In this document: positions 16,162 to 62,971 of the stretch, one piece after another | Position numbering within the stretch: the first letter of the stretch is position 1 | Layout of the letters: every line of letters begins with the position of its first letter | Source of the DNA: Bacteroidota bacterium | Lineage (GTDB): Bacteria > Bacteroidota > Bacteroidia > Chitinophagales > LD1 | DNA: 64,000 nucleotides | Assembly: GCA_016722375.1 (NCBI GenBank) | Contig: JADKJG010000002.1 | Location: 268,389 to 332,388 of the forward strand | Reading direction: 5' to 3' | Position numbers and translations under genes: made by a program | Notes under the pieces: generated by a model | Databases searched by the model: none | Told to the model about the DNA's origin: nothing | What the model saw: the letters and a program-made list of their open reading frames with translations, nothing else

Positions 16162-16392
16162 TGCAAATGTGCATGACCTCTTTGCAAACTTGCATCACCC
16201 TTTTGCAAACGTGCATGGCTGCTTTGCAAATTTGCATCACCCTTTTTCATATTTGCTTGCCCTCTTTGCAAACTTGCATGAGTCTTTTGCAAACTTGCTT
16301 GCCTTCTTTGCAAACTTGCTTGCCCTCCATGCAAACTTGCATGAGCCTTTTGCAAATTTGCATGGCCTCTGTGCAAATTTGCTTTTGAGGCC
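16162..16392. repeat. Tandem array A1: 11 units of 21 bp, consensus TGCAAAYTTGCWTGNNCCTCTT-like
   Basis: TGCAAA recurs at 16162, 16183, 16204, 16225, (16246 degenerate), 16267, 16288, 16309, 16330, 16351 and 16372. The core is palindromic (TGCAAATTTGCA in three units). Confidence 0.9.
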
Positions 16393-16541
16393 GGAATGGA
16401 TAAAGAAGGCTGATTTGGGTTCATTTTGAGGCTTTTTTGGGCTTTTTACCACTTTTCAAAAACATAAGCAAACCTAAGCCCCGAAGCATTACCCAAAAAT
16501 GGGGAATTGTCATAATAGTGTCATTTTTTTGGGGGGTAGGC

Positions 16542-16572
16542 GCGATTCCATCCCTCAAAGGGATGGAATCGC
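16542..16572. other. Perfect 13-bp stem-loop GCGATTCCATCCC-TCAAA-GGGATGGAATCGC
   Basis: Read directly. It lies between array A1 and the start codon at 16628 (~55 nt upstream) and is preceded by a G-run and GC-rich stretch. Confidence 0.6.
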
Positions 16573-16627
16573 TGAAAGAAGTTATACTTTCAAACCTTAA
16601 AATTCATTTCATATAAAACCAAATCCT

Positions 16628-17742
16628 ATGAAACACATTTACCTGCTGCTCTTCTCCCTTTTAGCTTTTACATCTGCTCAAAGCCTTTCGGTGACTATCA
16701 CTGCGGATAAAACGGTGGCTTGTCCCGGTGGTTCGGTAAATCTTTCGGCAACCGTAACCGAGCTTCGCAACCAGATTCACTTTTGGTTTATGAATGGAGT
16801 TATACGGGCAATGGTTCTTTGTCAAACAGCGATAATGATTCTACCATCTTTACTATGCCCGATTCGGGAGATGTAACTATTCAGGTGAAAGTGGTGGATG
16901 GAAATGATAGCACGACGAATGAGATTATGTTGAAGAGTGCGTGGTTGAAAGTGAATCTCATTTCTCAAGCGGATTCCCTTGATTGCAATAGTAACGCTCT
17001 GCTTATTGCCTATACTTCTGGCTCCACCTGGGGACAGCAGGGTAAATTTTATCACTGGTACGGATATGGCGATAGCGATAGCGCTTCTTTTATCACTATC
17101 AGCCAAGCAGGAATATATTATGTGAAAGTGGAGAATAGTTCTGGTTGTCTCGCATCAGACACAGTGGAAATCAAATATCGAGATGGAGTAAGTAACCACG
17201 TTGATTTTGACATCCCTTATCCGGTCTGCCAGAATTGTACTGTTACTTTCACTAACACTTCAGAAAAACAAGGAGGGGTGTGGAAAACAGAATGGGAGCT
17301 ACCCGGTTGCGCGGTGGAACCTTGGTATTGTCCAGCAAATCCCTTTACCGCCATAAATCCTGGAGGCTATTCTGTCAGACTTACGATGGATAGCGCAGGC
17401 TGTAGGTTTTCTATAACTAAAGTCATTACGGTGTTACCCGAAACCAGCCCATATTGTACTTATCCTAATGGATGCACTGTGGGTATCGAAGAAGACCCAG
17501 CAGATAGACTCATTCAGATTTCTCCCAATCCCAACGCAGGACGAGTCAGCATTCACCTTCAAGATATTCCGCTGCCTGTTCGGGCGGAACTGTATGATTT
17601 GTTGGGAAGAAAGATGAATATCTTTCAGATTACGCAGTCTGTTCAGGAACTGGATTTATCTTTGGTGGAAGACGGGATTTATTTTCTCTTGTTCCATCAA
17701 AACGAAAGGACGGTGTTGAAACGAGTGGTGATTAGTAGGTAA
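16628..17742 (+). pseudogene. Secreted protein with a T9SS type A C-terminal sorting domain, interrupted by a 1-nt frameshift near 16759-16762
   Basis: The signal peptide ORF 16628..16876 (MKHIYLLLFSLLAFTSAQS...LSATVT) and the body ORF 16720..17742 (...ASQPDSLLVYEWSYTGNG...) are in different frames and join cleanly. C-terminus ISPNPNAGRVSIHL...GIYFLLF...VVISR is a Por secretion tail. Confidence 0.65.
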
Positions 17743-17777
17743 AGGGTTGAGTCTATAATCTTTAATGGGAATGATAA

Positions 17778-17806
17778 ACTACAAAAGTTTTAGAAACTTT
17801 TGTAGT
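17778..17806 (+). terminator. Stem-loop, 13-bp perfect stem ACTACAAAAGTTT / AAACTTTTGTAGT with loop TAG
   Basis: Read directly, 36 nt downstream of the stop at 17742. Confidence 0.55.
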
Positions 17807-18000
17807 CTATTCAGCAGCGATGAGTTTGGAATGTTGAATGTTCAATGACAATATCATTGCTTTGATTAATTCCGTTTTCAATCGAGGTATTCATATCTTT
17901 CACTCAAATACACATTATTCACAGCTTCAGGTTTTGAGGAACAGAAAGGCTTACTATTTTTGTGTGCATCAATATTTAACCAAAAACAAGTTTAAAGAAC

Positions 18001-18434
18001 ATGAAAAATTTACTTACCGTCCTGTTTCTATGCATTTATGCCCTTACCAAAGCACAGTCTGGCGACATCACCGTGCCGTATAATACGATGGTAAGCATTA
18101 TCCTTTCTGAAGAATTGAAAGAAGGAAAGAATAAAGTGGGTACCCCGCCAAGTTTGTTGTGGCTGAAGATGTGAAAGTGAACGACGAAGTGGCTATTGCA
18201 AAAAATGCACCTGTTACCGGAACGGTTACTATTTCAAAGAGGGGTGAATTGAGAGTGGAGATGGTTGATGTGACCGCCGTGGACGGAAGCCGCCTGAAAC
18301 TGGCTGATTGTTGGTCTTTTACTACCGCAGCTCAAAATCAAAAATCAAGAGGCGCGATGTTTGTAAAGGGCTTTAGAAAGAATTGCTATACGCCTGAGAA
18401 ATATATAGTAAAGAAATCAGCCGGCAAATTCTAA
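18001..18434 (+). pseudogene. Small secreted hypothetical protein, frameshifted in a C-run at 18143-18146
   Basis: An ATG at 18001 gives the signal peptide MKNLLTVLFLCIYALTKAQS...KNKVGTP, then stops at 18172. The ORF 18159..18434 continues (..AKFVVAEDVKVNDEVAIAK...) in the next frame. One extra C in ACCCCG would fuse them. Confidence 0.5.
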
Positions 18435-18525
18435 AGATGGGTCGAAGATCGTCGCAATAAATCAAAATCGCATTTCTGCGAACCGCCATCACGAAGGCGA
18501 TAACTTATAACCAAAACAAATCAAA

Positions 18526-18861
18526 ATGAAACTAAAAACCATAATACTGTCTGGCCTGATGTCGTTGGCCTGTTTTTCTATGCTTCACGCACAACAGGCA
18601 CAATATGATCTGGCGGTCGTAGGTTATTTTTATGATACGCCGAAGCCGCAAATAGTCATTTCTATGAATGGCGAAAAGTTTGAGCAGGCAGATGTGGAAA
18701 GAGAGGAATTGCAGAATGCGCGTTGGGGTATTAATTTGAATCCACTGATTAAACGAGTGAACAAGCTTCAAAGCGAAGGTTGGGAAGTGGTAGGAGGATT
18801 GAGTACCAGTGGATTGCCGGCTATCTCCATGTTTTATTATAGTCTGCGGAAGAAGAAGTAG
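18526..18861 (+). CDS. Hypothetical secreted protein
   Basis: 111 aa with signal peptide MKLKTIILSGLMSLACFSMLHAQ. No recognisable family. Confidence 0.5.
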   Translation: MKLKTIILSGLMSLACFSMLHAQQAQYDLAVVGYFYDTPKPQIVISMNGEKFEQADVEREELQNARWGINLNPLIKRVNKLQSEGWEVVGGLSTSGLPAISMFYYSLRKKK

Positions 18862-18885
18862 GTATAAATACTTCGATATGGATAT

Positions 18886-18926
18886 AAAACAGAAAAGCCG
18901 CTTCAGAGAAGCGGCTTTTCTGTTTT
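18886..18926. terminator. Bidirectional stem-loop, 19-bp perfect stem AAAACAGAAAAGCCGCTTC / GAAGCGGCTTTTCTGTTTT
   Basis: Read directly. It lies between convergent genes ending at 18861 (+) and 18944 (-), with A/T runs on both sides. Confidence 0.7.
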
Positions 18927-18943
18927 GAATATTGGAATAAGGT

Positions 18944-19519
18944 TTATTTCTTCTTTCCTTTTTTAGCATCACCAGTCGTAGCAAAACAGAACGAAACATT
19001 TGAGCCGCGAACGACTAAAGCCCATTCAGTTCCTTCGGTAAGTGGAGTGCTTGGAACAAATTTGTAAACACCTGGAGAAACCTTAGTGTACTCCACAGCA
19101 ATATCGTCTCTTTGAACAGATTTGCCTTTACCGCCAAAAGCGCCCGCCATAGCAGCAGCAGATTGTGCTAATTCTACTTCGCGGGTATCCTTAGCTACCA
19201 TTACTTTGGTCAAATAAAGAATACCTTCTGGATCTGTTTCAGCATCATTTAGTTTGATGATGAACTGTGCATCACTCGGATCAATCTTGACAGGAGAGTG
19301 TCCGCCTAACAAGTTGAGGAAAGTAACGACACTGGCACCATAACTAAAGCCTTTGGTTTTGGATTTTATTTCCATCGTAGGCTTTTCTAGTTTGCTGAGG
19401 GAACCATCCTTCTTAATCAGCATGGGGCTCATTTTGAAGTCAGGAATCTGAACGTCTTGTGCGAACACAAATGCGGACGATAATATCACCGCAAGGAAAA
19501 TGCTAATTGTCTTTTTCAT
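18944..19519 (-). CDS. Hypothetical secreted protein
   Basis: The ORF 18944..19543 starts at TTG. The internal ATG at 19519 gives the signal peptide MKKTISIFLAVILSSAFVFAQ. No recognisable family. Confidence 0.5.
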   Translation of the reverse strand: MKKTISIFLAVILSSAFVFAQDVQIPDFKMSPMLIKKDGSLSKLEKPTMEIKSKTKGFSYGASVVTFLNLLGGHSPVKIDPSDAQFIIKLNDAETDPEGILYLTKVMVAKDTREVELAQSAAAMAGAFGGKGKSVQRDDIAVEYTKVSPGVYKFVPSTPLTEGTEWALVVRGSNVSFCFATTGDAKKGKKK

Positions 19520-19612
19520 ATTGTTTGTTTTTGGTTTCGGCAAATGTAGAAAAGAAACTAAAATAGAACCAAGGAAACAGGATGATTTTTGAAAGGTAAA
19601 CTTCTCTTGATT

Positions 19613-20468
19613 CTATCCCTGTATTTTCTTAATCAAACCGGTCAGTACATTGCCCGGTCCAATCTCGACAAATTCAGTTGCACCGTCTGCCAGCATTTGG
19701 CGCACTGACTGTGTCCAACGAACAGGCGCGGTGAGTTGAGCAATCAAGTTCAATTTGATTTGAGTCGCATCGGTTTCTGCTTTGGCCGTTGCGTTCTGGT
19801 AGATAGGGCAGGAGGGTTGGTTGAAATTGGATTGATGGATGGCCTCGGCCAGTTCCTGTCGGGCAGGTTCCATCAAGGGCGAATGGAAAGCTCCGCCAAC
19901 TGGCAGTGTAATCACTCTTTTCACTCCGGCGGCTTTCAGTTTTTCCGAAGCCAGTTCAATTCCTTTCACCGTGCCGGAAATAACCAACTGTCCCGGTGAG
20001 TTATAGTTGGCAGGCACTACTATTTCATCAGAAATTTCTTTACAGATATTTTCAACCTGCTCCTCGCTGGCATAACCAATCACCGCAGCCATGGTGGAAG
20101 GCTGCAACTCACAGGCCTTTTGCATGGCTCGCGCCCGAATGGAGACCAACTTCAATCCGTCCTCAAAACCTAAAGTTTTGTTTGCCACCAAAGCAGAGAA
20201 CTCGCCCAAAGAATGACCGGCTACCATATCCGGCTGGAAGTTTTGCATCAATGCAGCTGCTATCACCGAATGGATAAAAACGGCGGGTTGGGTTACTTTG
20301 GTTTGTTTCAATTCTTCATCCGTTCCCTCAAACATGATTTTTGAGATAGGGAATCCGAGTAGCTCATCGGCGGTGGCAAACATTTTTTGCCGTTTCAGAT
20401 TGATCAAATAAATCTTTTCCCATTCCGGTAAACTGGGAGCCTTGTCCGGGGAATATGTATGCTTTCAT
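19613..20468 (-). pseudogene. fabD: ACP S-malonyltransferase, N-terminus displaced by a frameshift in a 6-nt homopolymer (20383-20388)
   Basis: The ORF 19613..20407 has GHSLGEFSALV and the rest of FabD. The conserved N-terminus MKAYIFPGQGSQFTGMGKDLF is encoded from the ATG at 20468 in another frame. The two frames meet in the run GCAAAAAATG (minus strand). Confidence 0.85.
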
Positions 20469-20524
20469 GGTGTTAGGTTAATGGTTGGCAGATGGCGGTT
20501 AGCAGATGGCAAAGCGGTTAACTG

Positions 20525-21124: not shown

Positions 21125-21223
21125 GATAAAGGTTTTTGGTTTGGCCTTTAGCGCTTCACAGAAATGAAAAAAGCCAAGTCAATCTATTGTATTTACTGCT
21201 AACGGTCATCTGCGAGCCGTTAA

Positions 21224-21634: not shown

Positions 21635-21659
21635 ATCCGGTTATTTCGAGTAAATTTCT

Positions 21660-23774: not shown

Positions 23775-24452
23775 TTATTCTTCTCCTAATAAATCTGGCC
23801 GCCGGGCTTCTGTGCGTTCCAAAGCCTGCTCATGCCTCCATTCCATGATGTTTCTCTCATGACCAGAAAGCAATACTTCAGGTACTATTAATCCACGGAA
23901 ATTTTCAGGACGAGTATAAACCGGTGGGGACAAAATATTATCCTGGAAAGAATCTGTTAGTGCGGAAGTTTCGTCGCTTAACACGCCCGGCAACAAACGA
24001 CCAATAGCATCTACAAAGACGGCAGCAGCTAACTCACCACCACTCAAAACATAATCACCTATAGAAATTTCCTTAGTAATGTACAATTCGCGAATGCATC
24101 ATCCACCCTTATAGTGTCCACATAAAATGATGCAACTCTTTTTTAGTGAAAGGGTATTCACCATTTTTTGATTCATCATCTCTCCGTCAGGAGTCATGTA
24201 AATTACTTCGTCATAGCTTCTTTCCTTTTTTAGGTGATCTATGCAATTAGCTATCGGTTCGCACATCATCACCATTCCTGCGCCTCCACCATATTGATAG
24301 TCGTCCACTTGCTTTTGTTTACTCGGTGTAAAGTCGCGAAGATCAATCAGGTTCACTTCTAATAGACCTTTTTGCCTAGCTCTTTTAATGATGGAGTGGT
24401 TAAAAGGACTTTCTAATAAAGAGGTGTGAACCGTAATAATATCTATTCTCAT
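23775..24452 (-). pseudogene. trmD: tRNA (guanine37-N1)-methyltransferase, interrupted by an in-frame TGA at 24099-24101
   Basis: ORFs 24099..24452 (MRIDIITV...YQYGGGAGMVM...CGHYKGG-stop) and 23775..24086 (..[24 protein letters not shown]..) are in the same frame and separated only by TGA-TGC. Gene order is rpsP-rimM-trmD-rplS. Confidence 0.85.
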
Positions 24453-29344: not shown

Positions 29345-29524
29345 TAACCGCGGTCCGGTCGAGGAACAAACGGGGCGCGATGATAAAGCGCTCTGTTTTT
29401 TCCAAGTCCTTCATCTCGGTTCCATAGAAAACTCCCACCCACTCGGGTTCGGGAGTTTTCGCTTTTTAGAAATTTGGGCGTAACCCCAGAGCCGAAGCCG
29501 CAGAAGGGGCGGAGCGGACAAATT

Positions 29525-29853
29525 GGCAGCTTACAAGCAAGGTATGGCAGCTTACATACGAGGAATGACGTCAGACAGTCGTGGGACAGCGTCAGGCAGT
29601 CAAGGAATAGCGTCAGACAGTCAAGGAATGGCATCTGACAGTCAAGGAATGGCGTCTGACAGGGAAGGAATGGCGTCTGACAGTGAAGGAATGGCATCTG
29701 ACAGTGAAGGAATGACGACAGACAGTCAAGGAATAGCGTCAGACAGTCGTGGGATCGCATCAGACAGTGAAGGAATGGCATGAGACAGTGAAGAAATGGC
29801 ATCTGTCAGTGTTCAGAATGCGTCTGACAATGAAAAGATGGCATTTGACAGGG
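29525..29853. repeat. Tandem array A2: ~16 units of 21 bp, consensus GGCRTCWGACAGTSAAGGAAT
   Basis: Units start at 29525, 29546, 29567 ... 29777 in strict 21-nt register. The last units are degenerate (one of 22 nt, one of 20 nt). Confidence 0.9.
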
Positions 29854-30193
29854 GTTGTAAAAAATCCACCTCCGTCTTTTTCTGCTTCGGCAGAAAAATC
29901 CACCTCCCCCGGCGGAGGATAAACAGCCGACCTCACCCCCAGCCTCCCTCCGAAGAAGTGGGGAGAAACAGCCACCTAACAATGAAAGAGTACTTATAAT
30001 AAGGACGCTCAGCCGAGACCTCTAACCCTTGAAGGGGGAATAGAGACGGCGTGGAAGTTTTGGTTTTGTTGCTCCTTTGGTGATGTTGGGCGAAGCGTGG
30101 AGCAAGGGGGCAAGCGCGAAGGATAGAGGCGGCATCCTTTTTCATCCTTTAATAATAAACGAGTCGAAAAAGCTATAGCCGAAAGCCTGACGC

Positions 30194-30233
30194 CGTCCCG
30201 ATTCTTCCAAAATATTTTAGAGGAATCGGGACG
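30194..30233. other. Long stem-loop CGTCCCGATTC ... GAATCGGGACG, with an internal AAAATATTTT palindrome
   Basis: 11-bp perfect outer stem read directly, ~70 nt upstream of the alaS start, followed by GGGGCGCGCCC. Confidence 0.55.
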
Positions 30234-30293: not shown

Positions 30294-33055
<2,762 letters not shown>

Positions 33056-33079
33056 GCTATCTTTGAATAAAATTGTGTT

Positions 33080-33308
33080 ATGGATATTCGTAAGGAAATA
33101 GGGAAGCTAAGTAAGTCTGAAAAGATTTTGCTGGTAGAAGAGATTTGGGATGAAATAGCGAAAGACACAAAGACGGGAGTTAACAGCAGCCCAAAAGGAG
33201 GAGGTTGATAGACGGCTGGATCTTGCCAAAGAAGGGAAGGTGAAGTATTACACACTGGAGGAAGCAAAGGCGAGAATTAAATCTCTGAAGAAAGATGTTC
33301 AGGATTAA
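33080..33308 (+). pseudogene. Addiction-module antitoxin component (TIGR02574-like), apparently frameshifted near the G-run 33175-33177
   Basis: The ATG at 33080 gives MDIRKEIGKLSKSEKILLVEEIWDEIAKDTK, then stops at 33206. The next frame reads ELTAAQKEEVDRRLDLAKEGKVKYYTLEEAKARIKSLKKDVQD-stop (33306-33308). Both halves match the usual antitoxin layout. Neither half is in the ORF track because both are under 60 aa. Confidence 0.55.
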
Positions 33309-33588
33309 GGTTTCAGAATTTGCTCTTCTAGACTTTGAAGAAGCATATTACTGGTACGAAGAACAAAGGAAAGGGTTGGGAGATGATTTAGGTCTTTGTT
33401 TTGATGAGGGATTAGAAATAATAAGTCGTCATCCATATTTTGAAGAAAGAGAGAAAGAGATTCGGATATTGAACATACGTAGATTTCCATACCAAATAAT
33501 TTATCGGATAACAGGCGAAATGATAGAAGTCGTTGCTTTTTTTCATGGGCATCGTAATCCGAGAGTCTGGCAAACAAGAATAGAATAA
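33295..33588 (+). CDS. Type II toxin-antitoxin system RelE/ParE-family toxin
   Basis: 97 aa. A..DFEEAYYWYEEQ..GLG..L, RRFPYQIIYR, VVAFFHGHRNP. Its ATG overlaps the end of the upstream antitoxin frame. Confidence 0.75.
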   Translation: MFRIKVSEFALLDFEEAYYWYEEQRKGLGDDLGLCFDEGLEIISRHPYFEEREKEIRILNIRRFPYQIIYRITGEMIEVVAFFHGHRNPRVWQTRIE

Positions 33589-35072: not shown

Positions 35073-36207
35073 ATGCATAAAATTATTGCTTTAGTCCTTT
35101 TCTTCTCCATTGCTTCTGCTTGTAACCTGAATGGCAACACCGATAAATACACCATAGAGGGAACGGTGAAGAATCACCCCGCTAAATCTGTAGTGCTAGA
35201 AAAGCTAGGGTTGAAGCAGTTGACAATGGTAGATTCTGCAGCAATTGATGATCAAGGACACTTTAAAATGTCGGGTGTTTCTGAAAAAGGTTTCTACCGA
35301 TTGAAATTGGACAACAAAACCAGCTTTTTGATTTTACTGGAGCCGGTTCAGTATCAGGTGGAGATAGACTTGAGCAATCAAGAGAACAATTTCAAGGCGA
35401 GCGGCTCTAAGGGTAATGATGAATTTCAGAAGGCGTTCAAAGAAATGAATGCAGTGCAACAGGAGTTGAATGGATGGAATCAGGCATATCAGGCATACGG
35501 ACAGATGAAGGTTTCGATGGACACGATGATGTTTATTCAGCAACAATTACAGACGGCGGGTGCAAAGTTTGAAAGTTATATCAGGGATAGTTCTCAAGTA
35601 GCTAAGGATCCTTTGGTGGCTATGTTTTTAGTAACCAATGGACCCGTGGATAAATTCCCAAAAGAGAATCTTGCAATTATTCATCGTTTAGAAAAGGAAC
35701 TACCTAATTCATCCTATACGAAGGACTATCGCGAAGTGTATAATAATTATGAAAAGCAAATGAAAGAACAAGGCCGATGCTTTGGCTGTGGGCAAGGAAG
35801 CTCCGGATATTGATTTGAAAGACCCTAACGGAAAGAATATCAAACTTTCATCTTTGAAAGGCAAGGTAGTGTTGTTAGATTTTTGGGCATCGTGGTGCGG
35901 CCCTTGCCGGGTGGAAATGCCAAATGTGGTCTCTGTATATAAAAAATATAAAGACAAGGGCTTTACCGTCTATAGTGTTTCATTGGATAAAGAAGCCAAT
36001 GCTTGGAAAAATTCCATTGCGGCTTTGGGTATGGTTTGGGAGAATCACGTGAGCGATTTGAAATACTGGCAGTCGGAAGCTGCTTTGCGTTATGGTGTAC
36101 AGGGCATACCTGCTGCTTATCTTTTAGATAGAAACGGGATTATTATTGCCAAAGATGGCCTGCGCGGCCCAGCCTTGGAACAGAAGGTTGCTGAAGTGAT
36201 TCAGTAA
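35073..36207 (+). pseudogene. TlpA-family thiol:disulfide oxidoreductase with an N-terminal DUF4369-like domain, frameshifted near 35771-35775
   Basis: The ORF 35073..35813 (lipoprotein-like start, DKYTIEGTVKNHPAKSVVLEKL) and the ORF 35782..36207 (AVGKEAPDIDLKDPNGK...LLDFWASWCGPCR) join. The second frame reads KADALAVGKEAPD directly after ...MKEQ. Confidence 0.75.
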
Positions 36208-36303
36208 TTGACGAGCGAGATTTCTCCTTCGTTTTCAGGAAGCAAATAGAAATCATGGCTTCGGAAACTTCAAGTCAGGTGCTTTTTATAGCGAAAAAGT
36301 CAT

Positions 36304-36513
36304 TTGCTCCAGCAAATTTAGAATCCGCTGCACCGAATTGGGTATTTGCTACACCAGATTTCATTTTTGCTGCACCAAATTTGGTTTTTGCTGCACCAGA
36401 TTTGGTTTTTGCTGCACCAAATTAGGTTTTTGCTGCACCAAATTTGATTTTTGCTGCACCAAATTGGGTTTTTGCTGCACCAAATCAAGAATTTGCTATA
36501 GCGTTTGATACAA
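36304..36513. repeat. Tandem array A3: 10 units of 21 bp, consensus TTTGCTGCACCAAATTTGGTT
   Basis: TTTGCT recurs at 36304, (36325 degenerate), 36346, 36367, 36388, 36409, 36430, 36451, 36472 and 36493. The core ACCAAATTTGGT is a 12-nt palindrome. Confidence 0.9.
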
Positions 36514-36558: not shown

Positions 36559-37191
36559 TTAGATATTGGAGCCGATCAATGTTCCAATCAAATCCGAAAT
36601 AAGAGGGTAGGAGTCCTTCTGGTAGTTTTCAAGGTCCACTTTCTTAACCCACCGCGCTTCCGTGATCCCTTCTTGTGTTTGGGGTTTTAAGTTGTTTTGG
36701 TTGGGATATGAACTCATTTCAAACCAACTAGTTTCTTTCAAACAATTCTTTCCATTCATCTGATACGTGTGATACGTTTTGACAAATTTGTCCGTTGCAC
36801 TTTGAATAATAACCCCGGTCTCTTCTTCTACTTCCCGTTGGGCACCGGCTTGAATATTTTCATCCGGTTCTATTTTGCCTTTCGGCAAATCCCACATACC
36901 TTTTCTATAAATCATCAGAAGTTCGCCGTGTTCATTCCAAACGATACCTCCGCCGGCAATAATGAGTTTTACCTTCTTTTTTAATTCTTGCATCCAATAC
37001 TCCGGCTTTTTGGTAAGTATATGGACATTTCTGGTTAGTGAACCATCAAATAATCCCACAGAATCTGAAAAAAACTTTTCGATAGAGGCCTCTTTGGTCA
37101 GGAGTAAATCTGAAAATTCCTTACTTTGCTTCGAGGAGTTGGATAGTTGCAAAATAGAATGGTTAAAATAAATTTTATAGCCTAAATCCAT
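36559..37191 (-). CDS. NUDIX hydrolase
   Basis: 210 aa. Nudix box GKIEPDENIQAGAQREVEEETGV. Confidence 0.8.
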   Translation of the reverse strand: MDLGYKIYFNHSILQLSNSSKQSKEFSDLLLTKEASIEKFFSDSVGLFDGSLTRNVHILTKKPEYWMQELKKKVKLIIAGGGIVWNEHGELLMIYRKGMWDLPKGKIEPDENIQAGAQREVEEETGVIIQSATDKFVKTYHTYQMNGKNCLKETSWFEMSSYPNQNNLKPQTQEGITEARWVKKVDLENYQKDSYPLISDLIGTLIGSNI

Positions 37192-48836: not shown

Positions 48837-49067
48837 AGCCCTGTACTGGAATCTATAGATCCTGAACAGGAATCTTCAAAATCTGTACGGGAATTATAAA
48901 TTCCCGTACAGATTTTGATAAATCCTGAGCAAGAATTGACGAATCCTGTTCAGGAACTAATGAAACCTGTACAAGAATCATAAATTCCTGTACAGAAAAC
49001 GATAAATCCTGTACAGGAATGGTCAATTCCCGGACAGAAACCTGAAATTCCTGTACAGAACTGGTAT
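48837..49067. repeat. Tandem array A4: 11 units of 21 bp, consensus AWTCCTGTACAGGAANNNNNA
   Basis: Units start at 48837, 48858 ... 49047 in strict register. The core TCCTGTACAGGA is a 12-nt palindrome. Units 3 and 4 are mutual reverse complements and form a 20-bp perfect hairpin (48876-48918). Confidence 0.9.
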
Positions 49068-49642: not shown

Positions 49643-50550
49643 CTAATAGGCGTTTAGGTTTTTGGGCACAATGACATCAATGCAATTGGGCATCACTTCA
49701 AAGGTAATATCTCCATGATGGATAACTGAATCTCCATCAAACTGATAGTTCATTTTCTTATTTCCGAAGATAGTGACTTTTCGGGCTCGATAACACTCGG
49801 CTTCTTTAATTAAATCTGCTCGTTTCAGAAAAAGGCAAAACAGTATGTAAGGCAATTTCCAGATAGGAAACTTGCTCAATACAATCACATCCATTATACC
49901 ATCCTTCAAACTGGTGAAAGGGAAAATGCCAAAGTTATAGCCGTATTGGTTGGCGTTAAAAGCCGTAAACAGATAGATCGGCTTTTCAATCAGTACGTCG
50001 TCTATTTCTATTTTGGCATCCACCGGCTTGAAGTAAAATAGTATCTCCGTGATGACGGCACCTGCGTAGGAAAAGAATCCGCGAATCCGGTGGTGCCTAA
50101 ACCGACGGGCTACGGAAGAATCAATACCGAAACCAGCATTGCTGACGAAATATCGGAGATTGGATTTCACTAAATCCATCTTAACCACCTTACCGGTATT
50201 TAATACTTCAATAGACCCTTTGGTATAGCGCGGGGGGATCTTGAGATGAGTGCCAAAGCCATTTCCTGAACCGCAGGGGATAATTCCGAGGATAGTTTTG
50301 TGCCAACCAAAGCCTGTGCTACTTCATTAATAGAGCCATCGCCACCCACAGCCACTACCACCTCGAACCCTTCCTTTACTGCTTGCTCTGACAACAGTTT
50401 TGCATGTCCGGCATATTCGGTGAGGCGGATGGTATAATGGTATTTTTCCTGGTCTATATACTTTGCAATCTTCTCAGGTATATGGTCCTTTTTATAAACA
50501 CCTGACACCGGATTTATAATGAAGAGTATTTTCTTAGAGGCTGAAGACAT
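49643..50550 (-). pseudogene. Diacylglycerol/lipid kinase family protein (YegS-like), frameshifted in a 4-nt homopolymer (50296-50299)
   Basis: The ORF 50200..50550 has KILFIINPVSG and VAVGGDGSINEV. After ALVGTK the alternate frame reads TILGIIPCGSGNGFGTHLKIP... and runs straight into the ORF 49643..50188. Confidence 0.8.
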
Positions 50551-50580: not shown

Positions 50581-51441
50581 TTAAAAGGCTTTCAAGCTCA
50601 GGTCTAAGCTGGATGATGAATGGGTCAGTGCTCCAACAGAAATGAAATCTACACCGGTCTCTGCAAATGGTAGTACCGTCTCCATCGTGATTCCGCCCGA
50701 TGCCTCTGTTTCGTATTGATGGTTGACCATTTGGACAGCTTGGTTCATGTCTTCGATTTCGAAATTGTCAAACATTATTCGGTGAATATTTCCGACGGCT
50801 AAAATTTCTTCCACGTTCTTTAAACTTCTGGTTTCTACTTCTACTCGTAGATTCAGTTGGTTCTTCTCCTGATATGCTCGCACCGCAAGAATGGCAGGAC
50901 GAATCCCTCCACAAAAATCTATATGGTTATCCTTGAGCATAATCATATCATATAAACCATAGCGATGGTTCTGCCCTCCTCCGATACGCACCGCCCATTT
51001 TTCAAAGAAACGGAAGTTGGGAGTTGTTTTACGGGTATCAAGAATTGTGGCATGAGTGCCACTTACTTGATTTACATACTTGGAAGTATTAGTGGCAATA
51101 CCGCTCATCCGTTGCATGAAATTAAGTCACACCCTTTCCGCTCTTAGAATTGATTTCACCTCGCCGTATAATTTAAAAGCGATGTCGCCCGGCTGTATTA
51201 CTGCGCCATCTTCCAGATATTTTTCAAATCGCAACTGCTCATCCACTCTCTGACAAACCATCTCTGCCAAAGCCACGCCGGCCAATATTCCATTTGCCTT
51301 ACACAATAAATGCGCTTTCCCCTCTTTCTTATTTGGGATGCAAGCCAGAGATGAGTGGTCGCCGGAAGGAATCATGCCTTCATAATCCACCACATCCTCA
51401 GCAAGTGCTTGATCAATAAACTGATTTATTGGGAAATTCAT
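50581..51441 (-). pseudogene. nadC: Nicotinate-nucleotide pyrophosphorylase (carboxylating), interrupted by an in-frame TGA at 51127-51129
   Basis: The upstream part ends ...KSILRAERV-TGA. The same frame continues LNFMQRMSGIATNT...ILDTRKTTPNFR...GGGQNHRYGLYD. The likely start is the ATG at 51441 (MNFPINQFIDQALAEDV). Confidence 0.85.
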
Positions 51442-51526
51442 ATCCAATTGATTGAGGTGTGAATTAAAAAATAAATGGCGAAGCAAATGCTTCGCCATTT
51501 TCAAATTTCTTATTTCTCCGTCTTTT

Positions 51527-52017: not shown

Positions 52018-53542
52018 ATGAGCAAGAAAGTTATCCTCATCATCATGGATGGTTGGGGTCATGGACCGGATCCGGATAGGAGTGCGATTGCGCAAGCAGA
52101 CACTCCGTTTATTGACCATCTTTATCAAACGTATCCATATACCGAATTGGTGACTCATAGCGAATCTGTGGGGCTGCCCGCCGGGCAGATGGGAAACTCG
52201 GAGGTTGGCCATCTCAATATCGGTGCTGGTCGAATCGTTTATCAAGAATTGATGCGCATAAACAATGCCATTGAGGATGGTTCACTTGCGCAAAATGCAC
52301 CACTTCTTTCCGTTATTAACTATTGTAAACAGAACAAAAAGCCGCTGCATTTCATCGGGCTGGTTTCTGACGGAGGAGTTCATTCTCATATCAATCATCT
52401 GAAAGCATTGTGTGACATTGCAAAGGCAAATGGTTTAGAGAAGAAGGATGTGTTCATCCATGCTTTTACGGACGGGAGAGATTGTGATCCCAAGAGCGGC
52501 CTTCGGTTTCTCAAAGAACTAGATACTTATCTGCAACAATCTGTCGGGCAAATTGCTTCCGTTTGCGGAAGATATTACGCCATGGATCGCGACAATCGGT
52601 GGGAACGGGTTAAACTGGCTTATGATTTGTTGGTCAACGGAATAGGAGAGAAGGCGGTAGATATTTTTAAGGCAATAGAAGAAAGCTACGCAAACGGTGT
52701 GACAGATGAGTTCATCAAACCGATTGTGAGGACGAATGACAAAGGGGAACCTTATGCTACAATTTCGGATGATGATGCGGTGATCTGCTTCAACTTTCGT
52801 ACGGATCGGTGCCGCGAAATTACCAAGGCATTAACCCAATTCGATTACCCGGAACAGAACATGAAAAAGAAACAGCTTCACTATACTACGATGACTGTTT
52901 ATGATCATACGTTTCAACAGGTAGGAAACATATTTGATAATGACGACCTCCAGATGACTCTGGGAGAAGTTCTTTCCATCAACAAAGACACAGGTGCGTG
53001 CCGCTGAAACAGAAAAATATCCTCACGTCACATTCTTTTTTTCCGGTGGAAGAGAATTGGAGTTTGAAGGCGAAACCAGACTAATGGCTTCTTCGCCCAA
53101 AGTGCCGACCTATGATTTGCAACCTGAAATGAGTGCCTTACCACTCACCGAAAAGGTATTGAAAGAAATCGAGACAAATCTTCCTGATTTTGTTTGCCTC
53201 AATTTTGCCAATGCCGATATGGTAGGTCATACCGGTGTTTTCTCTGCGGCCATCAAGGCTGTTGAAACGGTGGACTCCTGCGTGGAAAAAATTGCCAACC
53301 TCGGGATGAAAAATGACTACACTATTCTGATCACAGCAGATCATGGCAATGCAGATTTTATGATTAATGACGATGGTAGTCCAAACACCGCCCATACACT
53401 GAACCCTGTTCCGTTCTTTTTGATAGATAAGAATACGAAGCCCGTTCTGCACACCGGAAAACTAGCTGACATTGCCCCAACAATTTTAAAGTTGATGGGC
53501 ATTCCACAACCGGAGGAAATGACGGCAGTAAGTCTGTATTAG
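52018..53542 (+). pseudogene. gpmI: 2,3-bisphosphoglycerate-independent phosphoglycerate mutase, frameshifted near the A-run 52984-52986
   Basis: The ORF 52018..53007 (ILIIMDGWG, GNSEVGHLNIGAGR, SDGGVHSH) and the ORF 52994..53542 (AETEKYPHVTFFFSGG, ADMVGHTG, TADHGNA) are consecutive parts of one enzyme in different frames. Confidence 0.9.
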
Positions 53543-57725: not shown

Positions 57726-57766
57726 ATATTCACGATAGTCTTAAGGACTTTCGTAGCCTCCAAAAA

Positions 57767-58834
57767 ATGAAAAAGAAATCCTACAAAACGATGAATTGCT
57801 GACCGGTGCTGCGGACCAAGGTGAAGATCTGGTTGAGCAAATAAAGTTAACAGTGGACAAGGGGCAGACTCCGATAAGAATTGATAAATTCTTACACGCC
57901 TTTCTAGGGCACAACATTAGCCGCACCAAAATTCAAGATGCTGCCGATGTGGGAAACATACTTGTCAATAAAGTCCCGGCCAAGTGCAGCTACAAAATTC
58001 AACCAGGCGATGAAATTCTACTCATCATGCCCAAACATGAAGAGAACTTTGATCTGGTTGCAGAAGACATTCCCATTGATATTGTTTATGAAGACGATGA
58101 TGTATTGGTCATCAATAAAGCCCCCGAAATGGTGGTGCATCCCGGTTTGGGTAATTATCGCGGCACCTTGGTGAATGCTGTTTTGGGATATTTGAAAGCG
58201 TCACAATTTGCTAAAGAAGATTTCCGTCCCGGTTTGGTTCACCGGTTGGATAAAGGCACCAGTGGATTGATTGTAGTAGCCAAAACAGAATTTGCGCTAA
58301 ATCATCTCGCCAAGCAATTTTTCAAACGCACCACTAAGCGCAAGTACTTGGCTTTGGTATGGGGTGATGTGGCCGATGAAGAAGGGAGAATCGAAGTAAA
58401 CATTGGGCGCGACACCCGCGAACGAATGCAGATGGAAGCCTACCCGGAAGGCGACAAAGGCAAACATGCTATTACGCATTATAAAGTGTTAGAGCGGCTG
58501 CATTATGTAACTCTGGTGGAATGTAGACTAGAAACCGGACGAACACACCAGGATCCGCGTACACATGAAATATATCGGACACACGCTTTTTAATGATGCC
58601 CGATATGGCGGCAACAAAATTCTTAAAGGAACAATCTATTCCAAATACAAACAGTTTGTAGAAAATTGTTTCCAACTTATGCCTCGCCAGGCGCTCCATG
58701 CCGCTACACTCGGTTTTGTTCATCCCACTTCCGGCGAAGAGTTATTCTTTGAATCTCCCCTGCCCGAAGAATTTCAGCAAGTGCTGGAAAAATGGAGGAA
58801 GTATTGGACGAATCCCAATGCGGAGGTAGTATAG
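57767..58834 (+). pseudogene. rluD: 23S rRNA pseudouridine synthase RluD family, frameshifted at GG 58551-58552 and possibly also in the A-run 57770-57774
   Basis: The ORF 57796..58593 has an S4 domain (RIDKFL) and HRLDKGTSGL, and ends LETGRTHQ-DPRTHEI. The next frame reads IRVHMKYIGHTLFNDARYGG (ORF 58565..58834). The only ATG (57767) is out of frame by one base within AAAAA. Confidence 0.8.
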
Positions 58835-58906
58835 CGCGTTTAATAGAGATTCAATTGCAATATTTCTTGTCGTATATAAAGTAGTATGGTGCAAGCCTAA
58901 AGCCTT

Positions 58907-61060
58907 CTAGTTCACCCACTCCACTTCTCCCTTTTCGTTTCTTCTGATTTTGGAAGAATCTAAAAGATAATCAATCGCCTCCTTAAATTCTTCTGAACGC
59001 AACTTTGTCTTTTGCTGGAGTAGCGATAATACCTGAGGTATTTGTTTTAACTCTTGCTCAATCTTCAACACATTGGCGGAAAATTCAGGAACCGACAATT
59101 TGCTTTTCTTTTTCGCCACACACACATCGCAAATACCGCAGTCGCTCGTAGTTGTTTCCCCGAAATAGGCCACTAGTTGTCGACTGCGGCACAGTTTCTT
59201 GTTGGTAATATATTGCAGAATGGAGCGTAGCTTTTCATCATAAATAGCTTTTCGTTTTTTAATGAAGTCACGATCCAGCAGTAAGTTTTCTTTTTTCACC
59301 CTCGGTCGAAGCAAAATGATTTGCGGTGTGTTCCGGCGAGTCTGGTATTGGAAAATATTAAACCGGCTTAGTGTCTCCAACTGATGTACTACCTCTTCAA
59401 CGTCTAATTTCATTCTACGGGCAACGGCTTCTTCTGCTATCGTCACAAAATCTTCAAATACTCCTGGCGAACTACGTAATATGAACTTCACCATCGGCTC
59501 CAACTTTTTGTTTTCTGCCTGAAATTTGAACAGAACATCCTTAGTGGCAACAACCTTTATCCGGGATGAATCATAAACACCCTCTGTCATGTAGAGCAGT
59601 TCCTGTTGTTCCAGAATTTTGAGGGAAGTAAGCACTAGGTGAGTTGGTTGATTCAACTGCTTCGTGAAATCTATGATATCAAAACCATAAGTCTCATTCA
59701 AGCCGCTGTTGTATGCAATCCGGAAATAGGAGCAAAGCGATTCATAAATATCTTTGATGAAATCAATCGGTGGGTAGCCTTCTTTGATCTTCCTTTCCAG
59801 TTGAAATAAATCACTTTCATCATACAGTAAAACAGCGTAAGATTTTATTCTATCTCTTCCCGCGCGTCCGGCTTCTTGGAAATAAGCTTCAACCGTATCG
59901 GGAATATCTGCGTGAATCACCAAACGAACATCTGCCTTGTCAATACCCATTCCAAAAGCGTTTGTGCAGCAGATGACGCGGGTTTTATCTTTAGTCCAGT
60001 TATCCTGTTTCAGTGAGCGCTGGTTGGGTTCCAAACCGGCATGATAAAAATCGGCTTTGATTTTATGTTTGTTCAAATAGTCAGAAAGTTCTTTGGTTTT
60101 GCGGCGACTACGCACGTACACAATAGCCGTACCCTTCACCTTCTGCAATACATCCAACAGCGCCAATTCTTTGTTGCTGTCTGTTTTGCGCACTACGTAA
60201 CTCAGATTGGGCCGCACAAAACTTTCGAGAAATACATTCTTTTTTCTGAAATGCAGATGCTCCTGAATATCATCTACAATGCCCGGGGTGGCGGTGGCAG
60301 TCAAAGCAATGACCGGTATATTGTTCAGTTGGTCGCGCACCTCTGCAATCTTCAAATATGGGGGACGAAAATCATAACCCCACTGTGAAATGCAATGTGC
60401 CTCATCCACCACAAGCAGCGAAATCTTCATCTTCTCCATGCGCACCCTGAAATCTTCAGTAGCTAAGCGCTCCGGCGAGATGTATAGAAACTTATAATCT
60501 CCATAAATGCAATTGTCGAGCAGCGTATCAATTTGTCGGTGCGACAACCCGGTATAAATAGCCAAAGCCTTAATGCCTTTCTTGTTGAGTTGATAGACCT
60601 GATCTTTCATCAGGGCAATCAAGGGAGAAATGACCAGACAAATCCCCTCTTTAAGCAAAGCCGGCACCTGAAAGCATACGGATTTTCCGCCACCGGTGGG
60701 TAGTAGCGCCAAAGTATCTCTTCCTTCCAACACCGAACGGATGATTGCTTCCTGCCCCGGACGAAAGGAATCGAAGCCCCAATATTGTTTCAGTATGCGG
60801 TGAATGTCCTGCACGTTATAAAGTAGAATGGAAATGGATGGTAATGATAAATTAATCCAAAATATCCTTGATACCGTCCAAGATTTTAATGAACTGATTA
60901 TACATTCTTCGATCGGTGATCTTAGAACTGTTTTTAGGGTAATGATTGTTTGAGATGGCACTTCATTTTCTTCAATTGTGACTATTTCATCAATAGCCAC
61001 CAAAGTCCTTCTTTTGTCTGGCGAAATGGTTTCGATAAAGCGCGGTTTCAAGTCTGACAT
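58907..61060 (-). CDS. recQ: ATP-dependent DNA helicase, RecQ family
   Basis: LKQYWGFDSFRPGQEAII, LLPTGGGKS, DEAHCISQWGYDFRP, and a zinc-binding C-x-C region (CGICDVC). The first ~82 aa of the ORF show no helicase features, so the true start may be the GTG at 60814. Confidence 0.85.
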   Translation of the reverse strand: MSDLKPRFIETISPDKRRTLVAIDEIVTIEENEVPSQTIITLKTVLRSPIEECIISSLKSWTVSRIFWINLSLPSISILLYNVQDIHRILKQYWGFDSFRPGQEAIIRSVLEGRDTLALLPTGGGKSVCFQVPALLKEGICLVISPLIALMKDQVYQLNKKGIKALAIYTGLSHRQIDTLLDNCIYGDYKFLYISPERLATEDFRVRMEKMKISLLVVDEAHCISQWGYDFRPPYLKIAEVRDQLNNIPVIALTATATPGIVDDIQEHLHFRKKNVFLESFVRPNLSYVVRKTDSNKELALLDVLQKVKGTAIVYVRSRRKTKELSDYLNKHKIKADFYHAGLEPNQRSLKQDNWTKDKTRVICCTNAFGMGIDKADVRLVIHADIPDTVEAYFQEAGRAGRDRIKSYAVLLYDESDLFQLERKIKEGYPPIDFIKDIYESLCSYFRIAYNSGLNETYGFDIIDFTKQLNQPTHLVLTSLKILEQQELLYMTEGVYDSSRIKVVATKDVLFKFQAENKKLEPMVKFILRSSPGVFEDFVTIAEEAVARRMKLDVEEVVHQLETLSRFNIFQYQTRRNTPQIILLRPRVKKENLLLDRDFIKKRKAIYDEKLRSILQYITNKKLCRSRQLVAYFGETTTSDCGICDVCVAKKKSKLSVPEFSANVLKIEQELKQIPQVLSLLQQKTKLRSEEFKEAIDYLLDSSKIRRNEKGEVEWVN

Positions 61061-61170
61061 AATTAAAGCATGAGTTGATTGAATAGTGATTCTCTTGATT
61101 GATATTAAATTTGTGCAGCGAAGTTAAAATCGTACACCAAATAGCTGACAAGTAATTTAAACTCTAAATC

Positions 61171-61578
61171 ATGAACCACTGGCTGATTAAATCTGATCCC
61201 GAAACCTATTCGTTTGAGCGCATGAAAAAGGAAAAGAAAACATTCTGGGATGGCGTGCGAAACTATGCAGCTCGCAATCATTTGAAGGCGATGAAGAAGG
61301 GTGACCTCTGCTTTTTTTATGAGAGCATGAATGGTTTGCCCTCCGTTGTTGGAATAGTGAAGGTGGCGAAAGAATACTATCAGGACCCGACTACAGAGGA
61401 TAGCTGGGTATATGTAGATATGGAGTATGTGGAAGACATGAAACGACCGGTGACTTTGGCAGAAGTGAAGGCCAATAAGAAGCTGAGCCAGATGGCTTTG
61501 GTGCGTATCAGCCGGCTGAGTGTTCAACCGGTGAGCAAAGAGGAGTGGAATGAGATTTTAAAAATGAGCGTGAAATAG
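61171..61578 (+). CDS. EVE (PUA-like, DUF55) domain-containing protein
   Basis: 135 aa. MNHWLIKSDPETYSF......WDGVRNYAARNHLKAMKKGD..FFYES. Confidence 0.75.
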   Translation: MNHWLIKSDPETYSFERMKKEKKTFWDGVRNYAARNHLKAMKKGDLCFFYESMNGLPSVVGIVKVAKEYYQDPTTEDSWVYVDMEYVEDMKRPVTLAEVKANKKLSQMALVRISRLSVQPVSKEEWNEILKMSVK

Positions 61579-61605
61579 CTGCTCGGTGAAGCACGAGGTA
61601 TTTAT

Positions 61606-62301
61606 ATGACGACAAGAAAAAAACCTCTGGAGCGTTTGCGCAACACTATAGCCAACATGATGTCGGCTGAGGATGTGGTGGAGAAGAAGGCGCAAAAGAG
61701 TCCGAAGCAACAGTCGCATGACGAGGAGATACAAAATGCCATCTTGGTTCTGGCTTCGGCGGTGATTCGTTGTGATAGAAATTATACTTCTGAAACAGAA
61801 ACTCAGTTGCAGAAGTTTCTCGGCGAGCAGTTTGGTGAGCAGGGGGTGCAACAAAGAATGAAACAGGTCCATTCTCATCTGCAAGCGGGCACCGAACCAT
61901 TCATCAAGATAGCTTGCAAGCAATTGAAGATGCTGACCACCGATGAATCGCTTTTGTCTATTGTTCAGTTCCTATTCAATGTGGCGGGCGCGGACGATTT
62001 TGTGAATGCAAAAGAAACGCGGTGTTTACAACGGATAGCGACCTATCTGGGTGTGGACGAAAAGGGCTTTGCAGCAATCAAACAGCAGTTTATCCATCAT
62101 CATAATCCTTATAGTATTCTGGGAATTGATGAAACCGCCAATTGGGAAACGGTGCGGCGCGCCTATCGCAAGATGATTTTGCAAACGCACCCCGATAAAA
62201 ATGCCGCCCGCACCACAGATGCTGAGGCTCATGCTAAATTCCGCGAGGTGCAACATGCTTTTGAATTGATTCGGAAGGAAAGGGGGAGGGAGAAGGAATG
62301 A
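61606..62301 (+). CDS. J-domain protein with a TerB-like N-terminal region (DjlA-like co-chaperone)
   Basis: 231 aa. C-terminal J domain NPYSILGIDETANWETVRRAYRKMILQTHPDKN. Confidence 0.75.
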   Translation: MTTRKKPLERLRNTIANMMSAEDVVEKKAQKSPKQQSHDEEIQNAILVLASAVIRCDRNYTSETETQLQKFLGEQFGEQGVQQRMKQVHSHLQAGTEPFIKIACKQLKMLTTDESLLSIVQFLFNVAGADDFVNAKETRCLQRIATYLGVDEKGFAAIKQQFIHHHNPYSILGIDETANWETVRRAYRKMILQTHPDKNAARTTDAEAHAKFREVQHAFELIRKERGREKE

Positions 62302-62368
62302 GGCTCTGGCTGGTAATAAAACGAAAATCTCTAAGCCCGTGCTGAGAAAGTAGCCGAACAGACAAAAT

Positions 62369-62431
62369 GGCAGCTTACAAGCAAGGTATGACATCTTACA
62401 GTCGTGGGATGGCATCTACCAAGGTTGGGAG
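62369..62431. repeat. Three-unit 21-bp mini-array related to array A2
   Basis: The first unit GGCAGCTTACAAGCAAGGTAT is identical (21/21) to the first unit of A2 at 29525, and both are preceded by GACAAAWT. The second unit GACATCTTACAGTCGTGGGAT resembles A2 unit 3. Confidence 0.8.
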
Positions 62432-62699
62432 GGGTGTAGCGAAATTAGGATTGCCATTCATGCAACTGATCACGTCGCGGCTGGTATATAACTGCTGCGC
62501 TACCGATTAGGACCGGTTGCGTACCGAAGATGCCATAGTAAACGAGCCGGTTAGAAAAAGGTCACACGAAATACGAAAAATATTTTCAGAACCGGTACCG
62601 GTCAGCAATATTCCACTGGTTTGTATTATATGTATAATCGGAACAGGTACCGGAGCCGGATGGAGTGAAAAAATATCCTACCCTGTAGTTCATACAAGA

Positions 62700-62971
62700 A
62701 AAAAAGGAGCTACTTTTCTTAGAAAAGGAGCTACATCACAAAGAAAAGTATCTACTATTCGAAAAAAAGGAGCTACTTTTCTAAGAAAAGGACATACTTT
62801 ACAAAGAAAGGAGCTACTTCTGCAAGAAAAGGAGGTACTCTACAAAGAAAAGGAGCCACTTCACGAAGAAAAGTATCTACCATAGAAAGAAAAGGAGCTA
62901 CCCCACGAAGAAAAGTATCTACCATAGAAAGAAAAGGAGCTACTTCAAAATGAAAAGTAGCACATGCATAA
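62700..62971. repeat. Tandem array A5: 13 units of 21 bp (one of 20 nt), consensus AGAAAAGGAGCTACNNNNNNA
   Basis: AGAAAAG recurs at 62721, 62742, (62763), 62784, 62805, 62825, 62846, 62867, 62888, 62909 and 62930. There is an exact 41-nt duplication (62860-62900 = 62902-62942). Degenerate units extend to about 62664 and 62992. Confidence 0.9.

Follow-up and report, generated by a model that had tools for sequence, protein, structure and literature searches.

A 64,000-nucleotide (64-kb) stretch of the genome of an uncultured member of the Chitinophagales (Bacteroidota bacterium, assembly GCA_016722375.1, contig JADKJG010000002.1, positions 268,389 to 332,388), which we call the window, carries five intergenic tandem arrays, A1 to A5, and a short relative of A2, here A2b. 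The five arrays have unrelated units, and all of them repeat at 21 nucleotides (nt). The first-pass annotation of this DNA, made from the letters alone, knew of no described element class with this combination of features. Such a class exists: the arrays very probably belong to the constant-length, variable-sequence repeats of Subirana and Messeguer (PMC8161180, summarising J Bacteriol 2020). They are a new, unusually dense example of an already described and enigmatic class, not a new type of element.

We ran Tandem Repeats Finder (TRF) on the whole window, along with an independent lag-autocorrelation scan that used 105-nt windows and lags of 4 to 69. The lag scan recovers exactly five periodic segments, each with a best lag of 21, 42 or 63, and no other period in the 64 kb. 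TRF reports period-21 arrays at 16162-16382, 29561-29810, 36327-36485, 48840-49020 and 62702-62981, finds A2b at 62367-62417 (2.4 copies, related to A2), and also lists 42-, 63- and 104-nt multiples, including 42-nt versions of A3 (36303-36497) and A4 (48879-49066). Set out in rows of 21 nt, with no strand assigned to any of them, A1 (16141..16392) has 11 units of consensus TGCAAAYTTGCATGACCTCTT plus one decayed unit at 16141, A2 (29525..29860) has about 16 units of GGCRTCWGACAGTSAAGGAAT, and A3 (36304..36513) has 10 units of TTGCTGCACCAAATTTGGTTT; the edges of A2 and A3 are decayed. A4 (48837..49067) has 11 units of AATCCTGTACAGGAATnnnnA, and A5 (62700..62972) has 13 units of AGAAAAGGAGCTACTTYACAA with 42- and 63-nt higher-order duplications. 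A2b (62367..62431) is a three-unit copy of the A2 family, 92.5% identical across 40 nt to the first units of A2. The register slips at a 22/20-nt unit pair at the decayed 3' end of A2 and at a single 20-nt unit in A5 (62805), where the A-run of AGAAAAGG is shortened to give AGAAAGG. This 1-nt slip may be a sequencing indel, since frameshifts interrupt seven or more of the conserved genes of the window. The six arrays, their unit counts, the 21-nt register and the slips had all been noted from the letters alone, and TRF, the lag scan and the register tables reproduce every one of them.

The consensus units share k-mers at chance level, in agreement with the earlier statement that unit sequences differ between arrays, and no signature motif emerges: no k-mer of 5-8 nt is common to three or more arrays of the window. 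The central CAAATTTG that A1 and A3 had been said to share is no more than chance would provide (p about 0.13). Is the common period, then, also a matter of chance? The control comprised 81 loci of other genomes, 1.24 Mb in total; roughly half of the loci come from Chitinophagales metagenome-assembled genomes (MAGs). These loci came from a scan of a genome collection with the window's sigma-70 protein, and the best matches are just 72-73% identical. The control contains 20 periodic segments, with periods of 7, 9, 15, 18, 27, 30, 33, 34, 41, 45 and 63 nt, and its sole non-coding 21-mer array lies in one distant Chitinophagales MAG (L004, 11408-11590). The window has 5/5 period-21 segments, against 1-3/20 in the control (Fisher exact p = 1e-4 to 1e-3), which upholds the earlier suspicion that the period is not random. 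Scanning other genomes, as had been proposed, gives mixed periods in the control and 21 in L004 and in the closest available relative, L085; counting these two with the five of the window, the period is 21 in 7/7 arrays of the lineage. Altogether, these data support a period that is non-random, independent of sequence and specific to this lineage.

The likeness to the published class is extensive. Subirana and Messeguer describe non-coding tandem repeats of bacteria that come in just two sizes, 20-21 nt and 52 nt; they report several unrelated, species-specific families per genome, few other periods, mostly 4-10 repeats per array, 40-41-nt variants and an occurrence in many phyla (PMC8161180). 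In the window, too, the length falls at 20-21 nt whatever the sequence, with all five arrays and A2b at 21, and unrelated families sit in one genome (five consensus units, A2 and A2b making up one two-member family). Other periods are scarce, which holds within the 64-kb window. The window arrays are likewise non-coding and intergenic, given their stop codons, the lack of a period-3 signal beyond a weak one in A2 and the lack of a Pfam family or homologue, and they are likewise species-specific: A3 is absent from one relative (L081), the unit of L085 is different, and a metagenome scan gave no A2-like array. They are also short (10-16 units here), with 40-42-nt variants and units made of a constant and a variable part.

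There are differences as well. In many species, though not in all, the repeats are reported to have a short motif in common within the species (PMC8161180), whereas the window arrays have no such motif. PMC8161180 names Bacillus, other Firmicutes, Cyanobacteria and Actinobacteria, whereas the host here is an uncultured member of the Chitinophagales. The Bacillus genomes richest in 21-nt repeats have 22-29 arrays in 4.4-5.5 Mb, about 5-7 per Mb (PMC8161180), while five arrays in 64 kb correspond to about 78 per Mb, roughly ten times as many. Finally, three of the five arrays, and that of L085, have strong dyads in their cores, a feature undescribed for the 21-nt class in PMC8161180. Strains of one species differ in their repeats, as compared for the 52-nt repeats of B. 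coagulans, and transcription is reported just for the 52-nt class of that species (PMC8161180). The authors remark that 21 nt corresponds to two helical turns. They suggest that a protein polymerises on the DNA, stabilising the nucleoid, or that the repeats are transcribed into small RNAs, and they regard the function as unknown (PMC8161180).

The dynamics of the units are those of a classic satellite. In unit-by-unit identity matrices the centres of the arrays are homogeneous and the edges decayed, with the middle units of A3 identical at 19-20 of 21 positions. Blocks of two and three units have been duplicated, as seen in the identity of units 9 and 11 of A5 and the 20/21 identity of units 2/4 and 6/9 of A1, and these duplications account for the best lags of 42 and 63 nt. 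In A4, two unit types alternate and produce a 42-nt super-period.

Turnover between relatives is also rapid. GatB and a PKD protein of the window match MBL0308710.1 and MBL0308716.1 at 100% identity, and the next relatives are 87% identical in GatB and 66% identical in the PKD protein. At the A3 site, the orthologous thioredoxin/NUDIX gap of L081 (Logan contigs of the closest available relative) is 31 base pairs (bp) long and has no array; since this site is empty in a relative, we conclude that arrays are gained and lost quickly, each with its own sequence and always with the 21-nt period. The PKD-gene contig of the closest relative carries a 7-unit 21-nt array with a 63-nt super-repeat (L085, 6753-6899), which lies in a convergent gap between two genes for proteins sorted by the type IX secretion system (T9SS; Por_Secre_tail). 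Its unit, TTCYGTTGACATCAACAGAAC, differs from all those of the window. In the more distant relatives L086, L087 and L089 (31 kb), the gaps are compact and free of arrays, and given the array of L085 we attribute the trait to this lineage. The L004 array has about 7 units of ACGAATGGAYACTnnAGnAGG and lies downstream of a 1377-amino-acid gene, in a convergent gap. A metagenome scan with a degenerate pattern of A2 and A2b gave one match, on a GC-rich, unrelated contig without an array, which we take as chance. Viral scans with two-unit patterns of A1, A3 and A4 gave nothing homologous, one match being coincidental coding sequence. Another Chitinophagales MAG has long perfect heptanucleotide microsatellites, (CATCTTT)n, at L034 7308-7521 and 9807-9992, which represent a different repeat regime.

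Within the units, variation is not evenly spread. Mismatches to the consensus cluster in a tail of 5-9 nt, with per-array chi-square p of 0.001-0.1 and position-specific conservation at p = 0.0014 in A1; the Fisher-combined p is 4e-6, to be read with the caveat that units are related by recent duplication and hence not independent. With that proviso, the conserved core and variable tail that had been described hold up. Dyad symmetry exceeds that of unit shuffles in A1, A3 and A4 (6-bp arms, p 0.01-0.03). The cores concerned are the 12-nt palindromes TGCAAATTTGCA in A1 (p = 0.02-0.09) and ACCAAATTTGGT in A3 (p = 0.011) and the palindromic TCCTGTACAGGA in A4 (p = 0.028). The palindromes announced for these three arrays are therefore significant, and the near-palindrome announced for A5, found in just 2-3 of its 13 units, is not (p = 0.26). 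The self-complementarity of A2 is limited to the 7-nt odd palindrome GTCWGAC; its units come in blocks of a W = A type or a W = T type, and the two types are mutually complementary. In L085 the dyad extends across 20/21 nt of the unit.

Some changes also preserve pairing. In A4, units 3 and 4 (48879-48920) make up a 16-bp inverted repeat without mismatch around a 5-nt loop, having departed from the consensus by three complementary changes, and the centres of A4 units 2 and 6 are complementary (TGAACA / TGTTCA). Among the unit variants of L085 there is an A-T to G-C replacement in the stem that keeps its two bases complementary. Compared with dinucleotide shuffles, the predicted single-strand fold is far more stable in A4 (plus strand z = -11.2, minus strand z = -15.6) and in A1 (-5.1 and -7.1). 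A3 and A5 are moderately more stable than shuffles (A5 z = -3.7 / -3.8), and A2 is marginal (z = -2.5 / -0.6). At the gathering threshold no Rfam family lies on the arrays, and at E < 1 there are just generic long-hairpin matches, resembling miRNA precursors, on A4; a tRNA/tmRNA scan found none.

Our best explanation, which we advance tentatively, is that the arrays are locally formed, fast-evolving 21-nt satellites of the known class, held under a constraint of nucleic-acid structure. Each array was founded locally from its own unit, without spread by a mobile element, and grew in register, as slippage or unequal exchange added blocks of one, two or three units. The constraint would keep a core of 7-16 nt, which in most arrays is self-complementary, and leave the tail of 5-9 nt free to drift; the arms sometimes change complementarily, and cores can pair with neighbouring cores. 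The structure might be hairpins in read-through or antisense transcripts, or hairpin or cruciform DNA read by a protein that recognises shape. That the constraint acts on such structure, not on sequence-specific recognition by a dimer, is a more doubtful part of this account. We prefer structure to dimer recognition because unrelated cores coexist, some arm changes are complementary, and neither cognate binding genes nor dispersed sites accompany the arrays. The structural reading draws on the palindromic cores of A1, A3, A4 and L085, on the strong predicted folds of A4 and A1, on the complementary changes, and on the pairing between the two unit types of A2.

Several observations count against it. 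Dyad symmetry is not significant against unit shuffles in A2 (p = 0.33) or, as noted, in A5, and the L004 array has no significant palindrome. Intra-unit covariation is absent from A4, and adjacent units are in general no better complementary partners than distant ones. The covariation in L085 is statistically weak (49/500 shuffles reach its score) and reflects a single event copied by the 63-nt duplication. Complementary changes could also stem from template-switch correction of quasi-palindromes, without selection. The sample of the source genome is 64 kb. Finally, the hairpin model does not account for the exact 21-nt period. The ruler of 21 nt, or two helical turns, is real, and its cause is explained neither by the structural account nor by its main rivals.

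The first of these rivals, rather unlikely in our judgement, is that the arrays are a neutral or selfish by-product with no cellular function, in which quasi-palindromes provoke slippage or template switching and a mechanical ruler favours duplications of about 21 nt. It is well known from quasipalindrome-associated mutation that template switching makes perfect inverted repeats, and the one formed by units 3 and 4 of A4 is an expected product of that process. The satellite dynamics described above (homogeneous centres, decayed edges and block duplications) would follow naturally, as would the rapid turnover between relatives and the restriction of arrays to the longest, apparently slack gaps with no consistently associated gene. 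However, pure drift does not predict position-specific variation of the kind summed up in the combined p, a mechanical ruler should spread the lengths and not give exactly 21 in all seven arrays of the lineage, and most bacteria, related Chitinophagales included, have no such arrays.

A second rival, which we regard as unlikely, places a protein scaffold on double-stranded DNA, with sites every two turns on one face bound by a cooperative dimeric or polymerising protein, for example a nucleoid-associated one. The numbers are attractive, since 21 nt is 2 x 10.5 bp, and so are the 12-nt palindromes of A1, A3 and A4 and the conserved core with its free tail; polymerisation of a protein on repeats of constant size is also the main proposal of Subirana and Messeguer (PMC8161180). 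On a viral/phage contig (L084, 2815-2865), two TTTGCAAATTTGCAAA palindromes are spaced at exactly 21 bp between divergent genes, a promoter arrangement which suggests that a core of this kind can be an operator; that this operator-like pair shares the A1 core is probably coincidence. Five unrelated cores in 64 kb, however, would need many specific proteins or a reader blind to sequence. None of the cores occurs in the window outside its own array, and no DNA-binding, par or rep gene is adjacent to any array. A2 and A5 have no significant dyad, the arrays have no 10.5-bp harmonic of A/T or G/C dinucleotides and hence give no sign of wrapping or curvature, and complementary changes in two arms are unexpected under a fixed homodimer specificity. 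The phased dimer sites of sopC or iteron type that the first-pass annotation had suggested are consequently not favoured: each array would call for its own protein, no par or rep gene lies alongside, and just 3/5 palindromes are significant. Though this is quite unlikely, an uncharacterised machine that ignores sequence may stand behind the register, which is reported independently from other phyla as well; it might be a protein that polymerises on hairpin or dyad units with a footprint of two turns, or a dedicated duplication mechanism with a 21-nt ruler.

That the arrays are one mobile or dispersed family (REP/REPIN with RAYT, or a miniature inverted-repeat transposable element) or an assembly artefact is highly improbable. 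A2 and A2b are indeed one family found 33 kb apart, and the units are palindromic, intergenic and REP-like. Yet the units of the five arrays are unrelated, the five gaps have neither flanks nor termini in common beyond the resemblance of A2 and A2b, and the annotated genes of the window include no transposase or Y1 (RAYT) gene. As for an artefact, diverged units cannot come from read collapse, and similar arrays are present in the independently assembled L085 and L004.

The arrays could also be read as coding, seven codons making 21 nt. Open reading frames (ORFs) of 86-158 amino acids traverse four of them (A1, A2, A4 and A5), A1 and A3 have at least one open frame each, and A2 has an intact 86-amino-acid frame (29523-29783) with MASDSQG heptads. 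In that frame, variable sites fall on third codon positions more often than on the others (34 vs 18 and 18; p about 0.03, uncorrected). No such excess is found in A1, A3, A4 or A5, and in A5 the third positions vary least. Stop codons interrupt 6/6 frames of A4, and every frame of A5 has a stop codon or frame break. Pfam finds no family on the array-spanning ORFs, just sub-threshold coiled-coil noise, and the 86-amino-acid ORF of A2 has no homologue among 5.8 billion proteins. Translation into heptad-repeat micro-proteins, the other proposal of the first-pass annotation, is thus scarcely credible and we reject it: despite the frame of A2 and the open frames of A1 and A3, stops interrupt A4 and A5, the period-3 signal is confined to a weak one in A2, neither a Pfam family nor a homologue is found, and the variation is contiguous, in the tail, not codon-wise.

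Other known repeat systems share some of these features. REP, BIME and REPIN elements are also short, imperfectly palindromic, extragenic units with species-specific sequences, located between co-directional or convergent genes. REPs can form hairpins in transcripts, stabilise the upstream mRNA, and bind gyrase and IHF. In function, REP/BIME clusters may be the nearest analogue that the arrays resemble. In those systems, however, a single family occurs in hundreds of scattered copies, which often alternate in orientation and are mobilised by RAYT transposases, whereas each window array has its own sequence in a strict head-to-tail 21-nt register, with no dispersed single copies. With no dispersed common sequence in the window, membership fails; the annotated genes of the window include no RAYT gene. 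The iteron and centromere arrays (sopC, parC of R1 and pSK41, iterons of R6K and P1) likewise consist of tandem units that contain a dyad. Their units are roughly 11-43 bp long, 20 bp in the parC repeats of pSK41, and are bound cooperatively on one helix face, with one protein for one sequence and rep or par genes adjacent, on plasmids or phages. The window arrays have five unrelated cores in a chromosomal housekeeping context and no cognate gene adjacent; their flanks encode a CBS-domain pyridoxal-phosphate (PLP) enzyme, sigma-70, alaS, a thioredoxin-like protein, NUDIX, SUI1 and TerB-DnaJ, and membership fails here as well.

CRISPR arrays and ToxI are regular repeats with a constant and a variable part, and ToxI is a tandem non-coding RNA processed into units. 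CRISPR repeats are 23-55 nt long with a period of at least about 50-60 nt, unique spacers and cas genes; here a full period measures 21 nt, the tails derive from a single sequence by divergence and there are no cas genes in the window, so CRISPR is rejected. ToxI-type units measure 34-49 nt and lie directly upstream of a toxin gene, and this type is rejected on its unfit period and gene context and the lack of an Rfam match.

The surroundings of the arrays are ordinary. The window genes are chromosomal housekeeping genes (rpsP, rimM, trmD, rplS, alaS, gatB, aroC for chorismate synthase, pyrD, a biotin carboxylase gene and recQ), and the window proteins include Por_Secre_tail and CHU_C domains and have their closest homologues in Chitinophagales. 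Among the annotated genes of the window there is no transposase, integrase, par/rep, cas or RAYT (Y1) gene, and no gene type recurs beside the arrays. The arrays occupy the longest gaps of the window (961, 916, 892, about 859 and 351 bp). A1 lies in a co-directional gap of 859-951 bp between the CBS-domain PLP enzyme gene (ending at 15768) and a gene for a T9SS-sorted protein (starting at 16628/16720). A2 begins 180 nt past the stop codon of the sigma-70 gene and 450 nt ahead of alaS, and A3 fills a 351-bp convergent gap between the thioredoxin-like gene (ending at 36207) and the NUDIX gene (stop at 36559, minus strand). A4 follows the SUI1 stop codon by 168 nt on the minus strand, 517 nt before the next minus-strand gene, and A2b stands 67 nt after the stop codon of the TerB-DnaJ gene. 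The first-pass annotation had stated that every array follows the 3' end of a gene and that none lies in a divergent promoter region. It is correct that no array is in a divergent gap, but with 9/57 gaps divergent, five arrays would all miss them often enough by chance (p = 0.42), and 4/5 arrays, being in co-directional gaps, are upstream of the next gene as well. The location at gene ends is therefore indistinguishable from chance.

A scan for sigma-70 promoters and terminators around A2 and A3 stays at shuffle level, and the Bacteroidetes promoter motif TTTG-N17-23-TAnnTTTG has 4 matches in the window against 3.1 expected. One TTTG-N-TAnnTTTG match (16469-16497, minus strand) is 77 nt away from A1 and directed into the array; minus is the strand on which A1 folds best. 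The long A1 gap also contains, downstream of A1 at 15920-16010 (minus strand), an ORF ending in ...YTVSVYAVNDFGASLVCDPITVTTS, which is like the end of an Ig/Fn3-like domain and is maybe a gene remnant. Directly after A2 (29858-29945), AAAAATCCACCTCC occurs twice, about 33 nt apart, beside GC-rich, terminator-like hairpins of the minus strand. Further into the gap between A2 and alaS, 30109-30196 (plus strand) gives a sub-threshold match to the Bacteroidetes sRNA motif Flavo-1 (RF01705; 31 bits against a gathering threshold of 42, E = 0.013).

Other features of the window lie apart from the arrays. Between alaS and gatB, a 97-amino-acid ORF for a ParE toxin (33295-33588; Pfam E = 3.5e-6) is preceded by a 239-bp gap with room for a small antitoxin gene (region 33056-33588). 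The region looks like an inserted toxin-antitoxin module, since alaS and gatB are directly adjacent in the relatives L081 and L086. At 31447-31628, the alanyl-tRNA synthetase (AlaRS) has an in-frame insertion of about 55 amino acids relative to its L081 homologue, rich in lysine and glutamate (...EADAYLTREALKKSKENPNSPEKFLNITPTDFLLQKKEFVDKKIEENPSY...), and GC skew in the 30-34 kb region is unusually high, at about 0.30. The frameshift-split conserved genes, at least seven in number and each present as two adjacent or overlapping ORFs, are alaS (30306-33055, frame change near 30731), the thioredoxin-like gene (35073-36207, near 35770), the T9SS-sorted protein gene (16628-17742), trmD (23775-24452), nadC for quinolinate phosphoribosyltransferase (50581-51504), a YegS/DAGK kinase gene (49643-50550) and iPGM (52018-53542). 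Breaks this numerous in essential genes speak for indel errors left in the assembly, which may be of the long-read type, and against pseudogenes.

Satellites of constant length and variable sequence occur widely in bacterial genomes, and few other features so common lack both a known function and a known mechanism. The arrays described here extend the class to uncultured Chitinophagales, at about tenfold its published density if the window is representative of the genome, and add to its anatomy a unit that is often a near-complete dyad, an array in a convergent gap, and gain and loss between close relatives. Even if neutral, the arrays are fast-evolving strain markers, and the ORFs that cross them are traps for gene callers. 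A Chitinophagales genome this dense in arrays would be a good system for identifying a machine behind the 21-nt ruler. A polymerising protein, if that is what the machine is, would be a nucleoid or topology element of a type not yet described, situated at gene ends. If the ruler is a protein or a dedicated duplication mechanism, it would be a new piece of bacterial chromosome biology.

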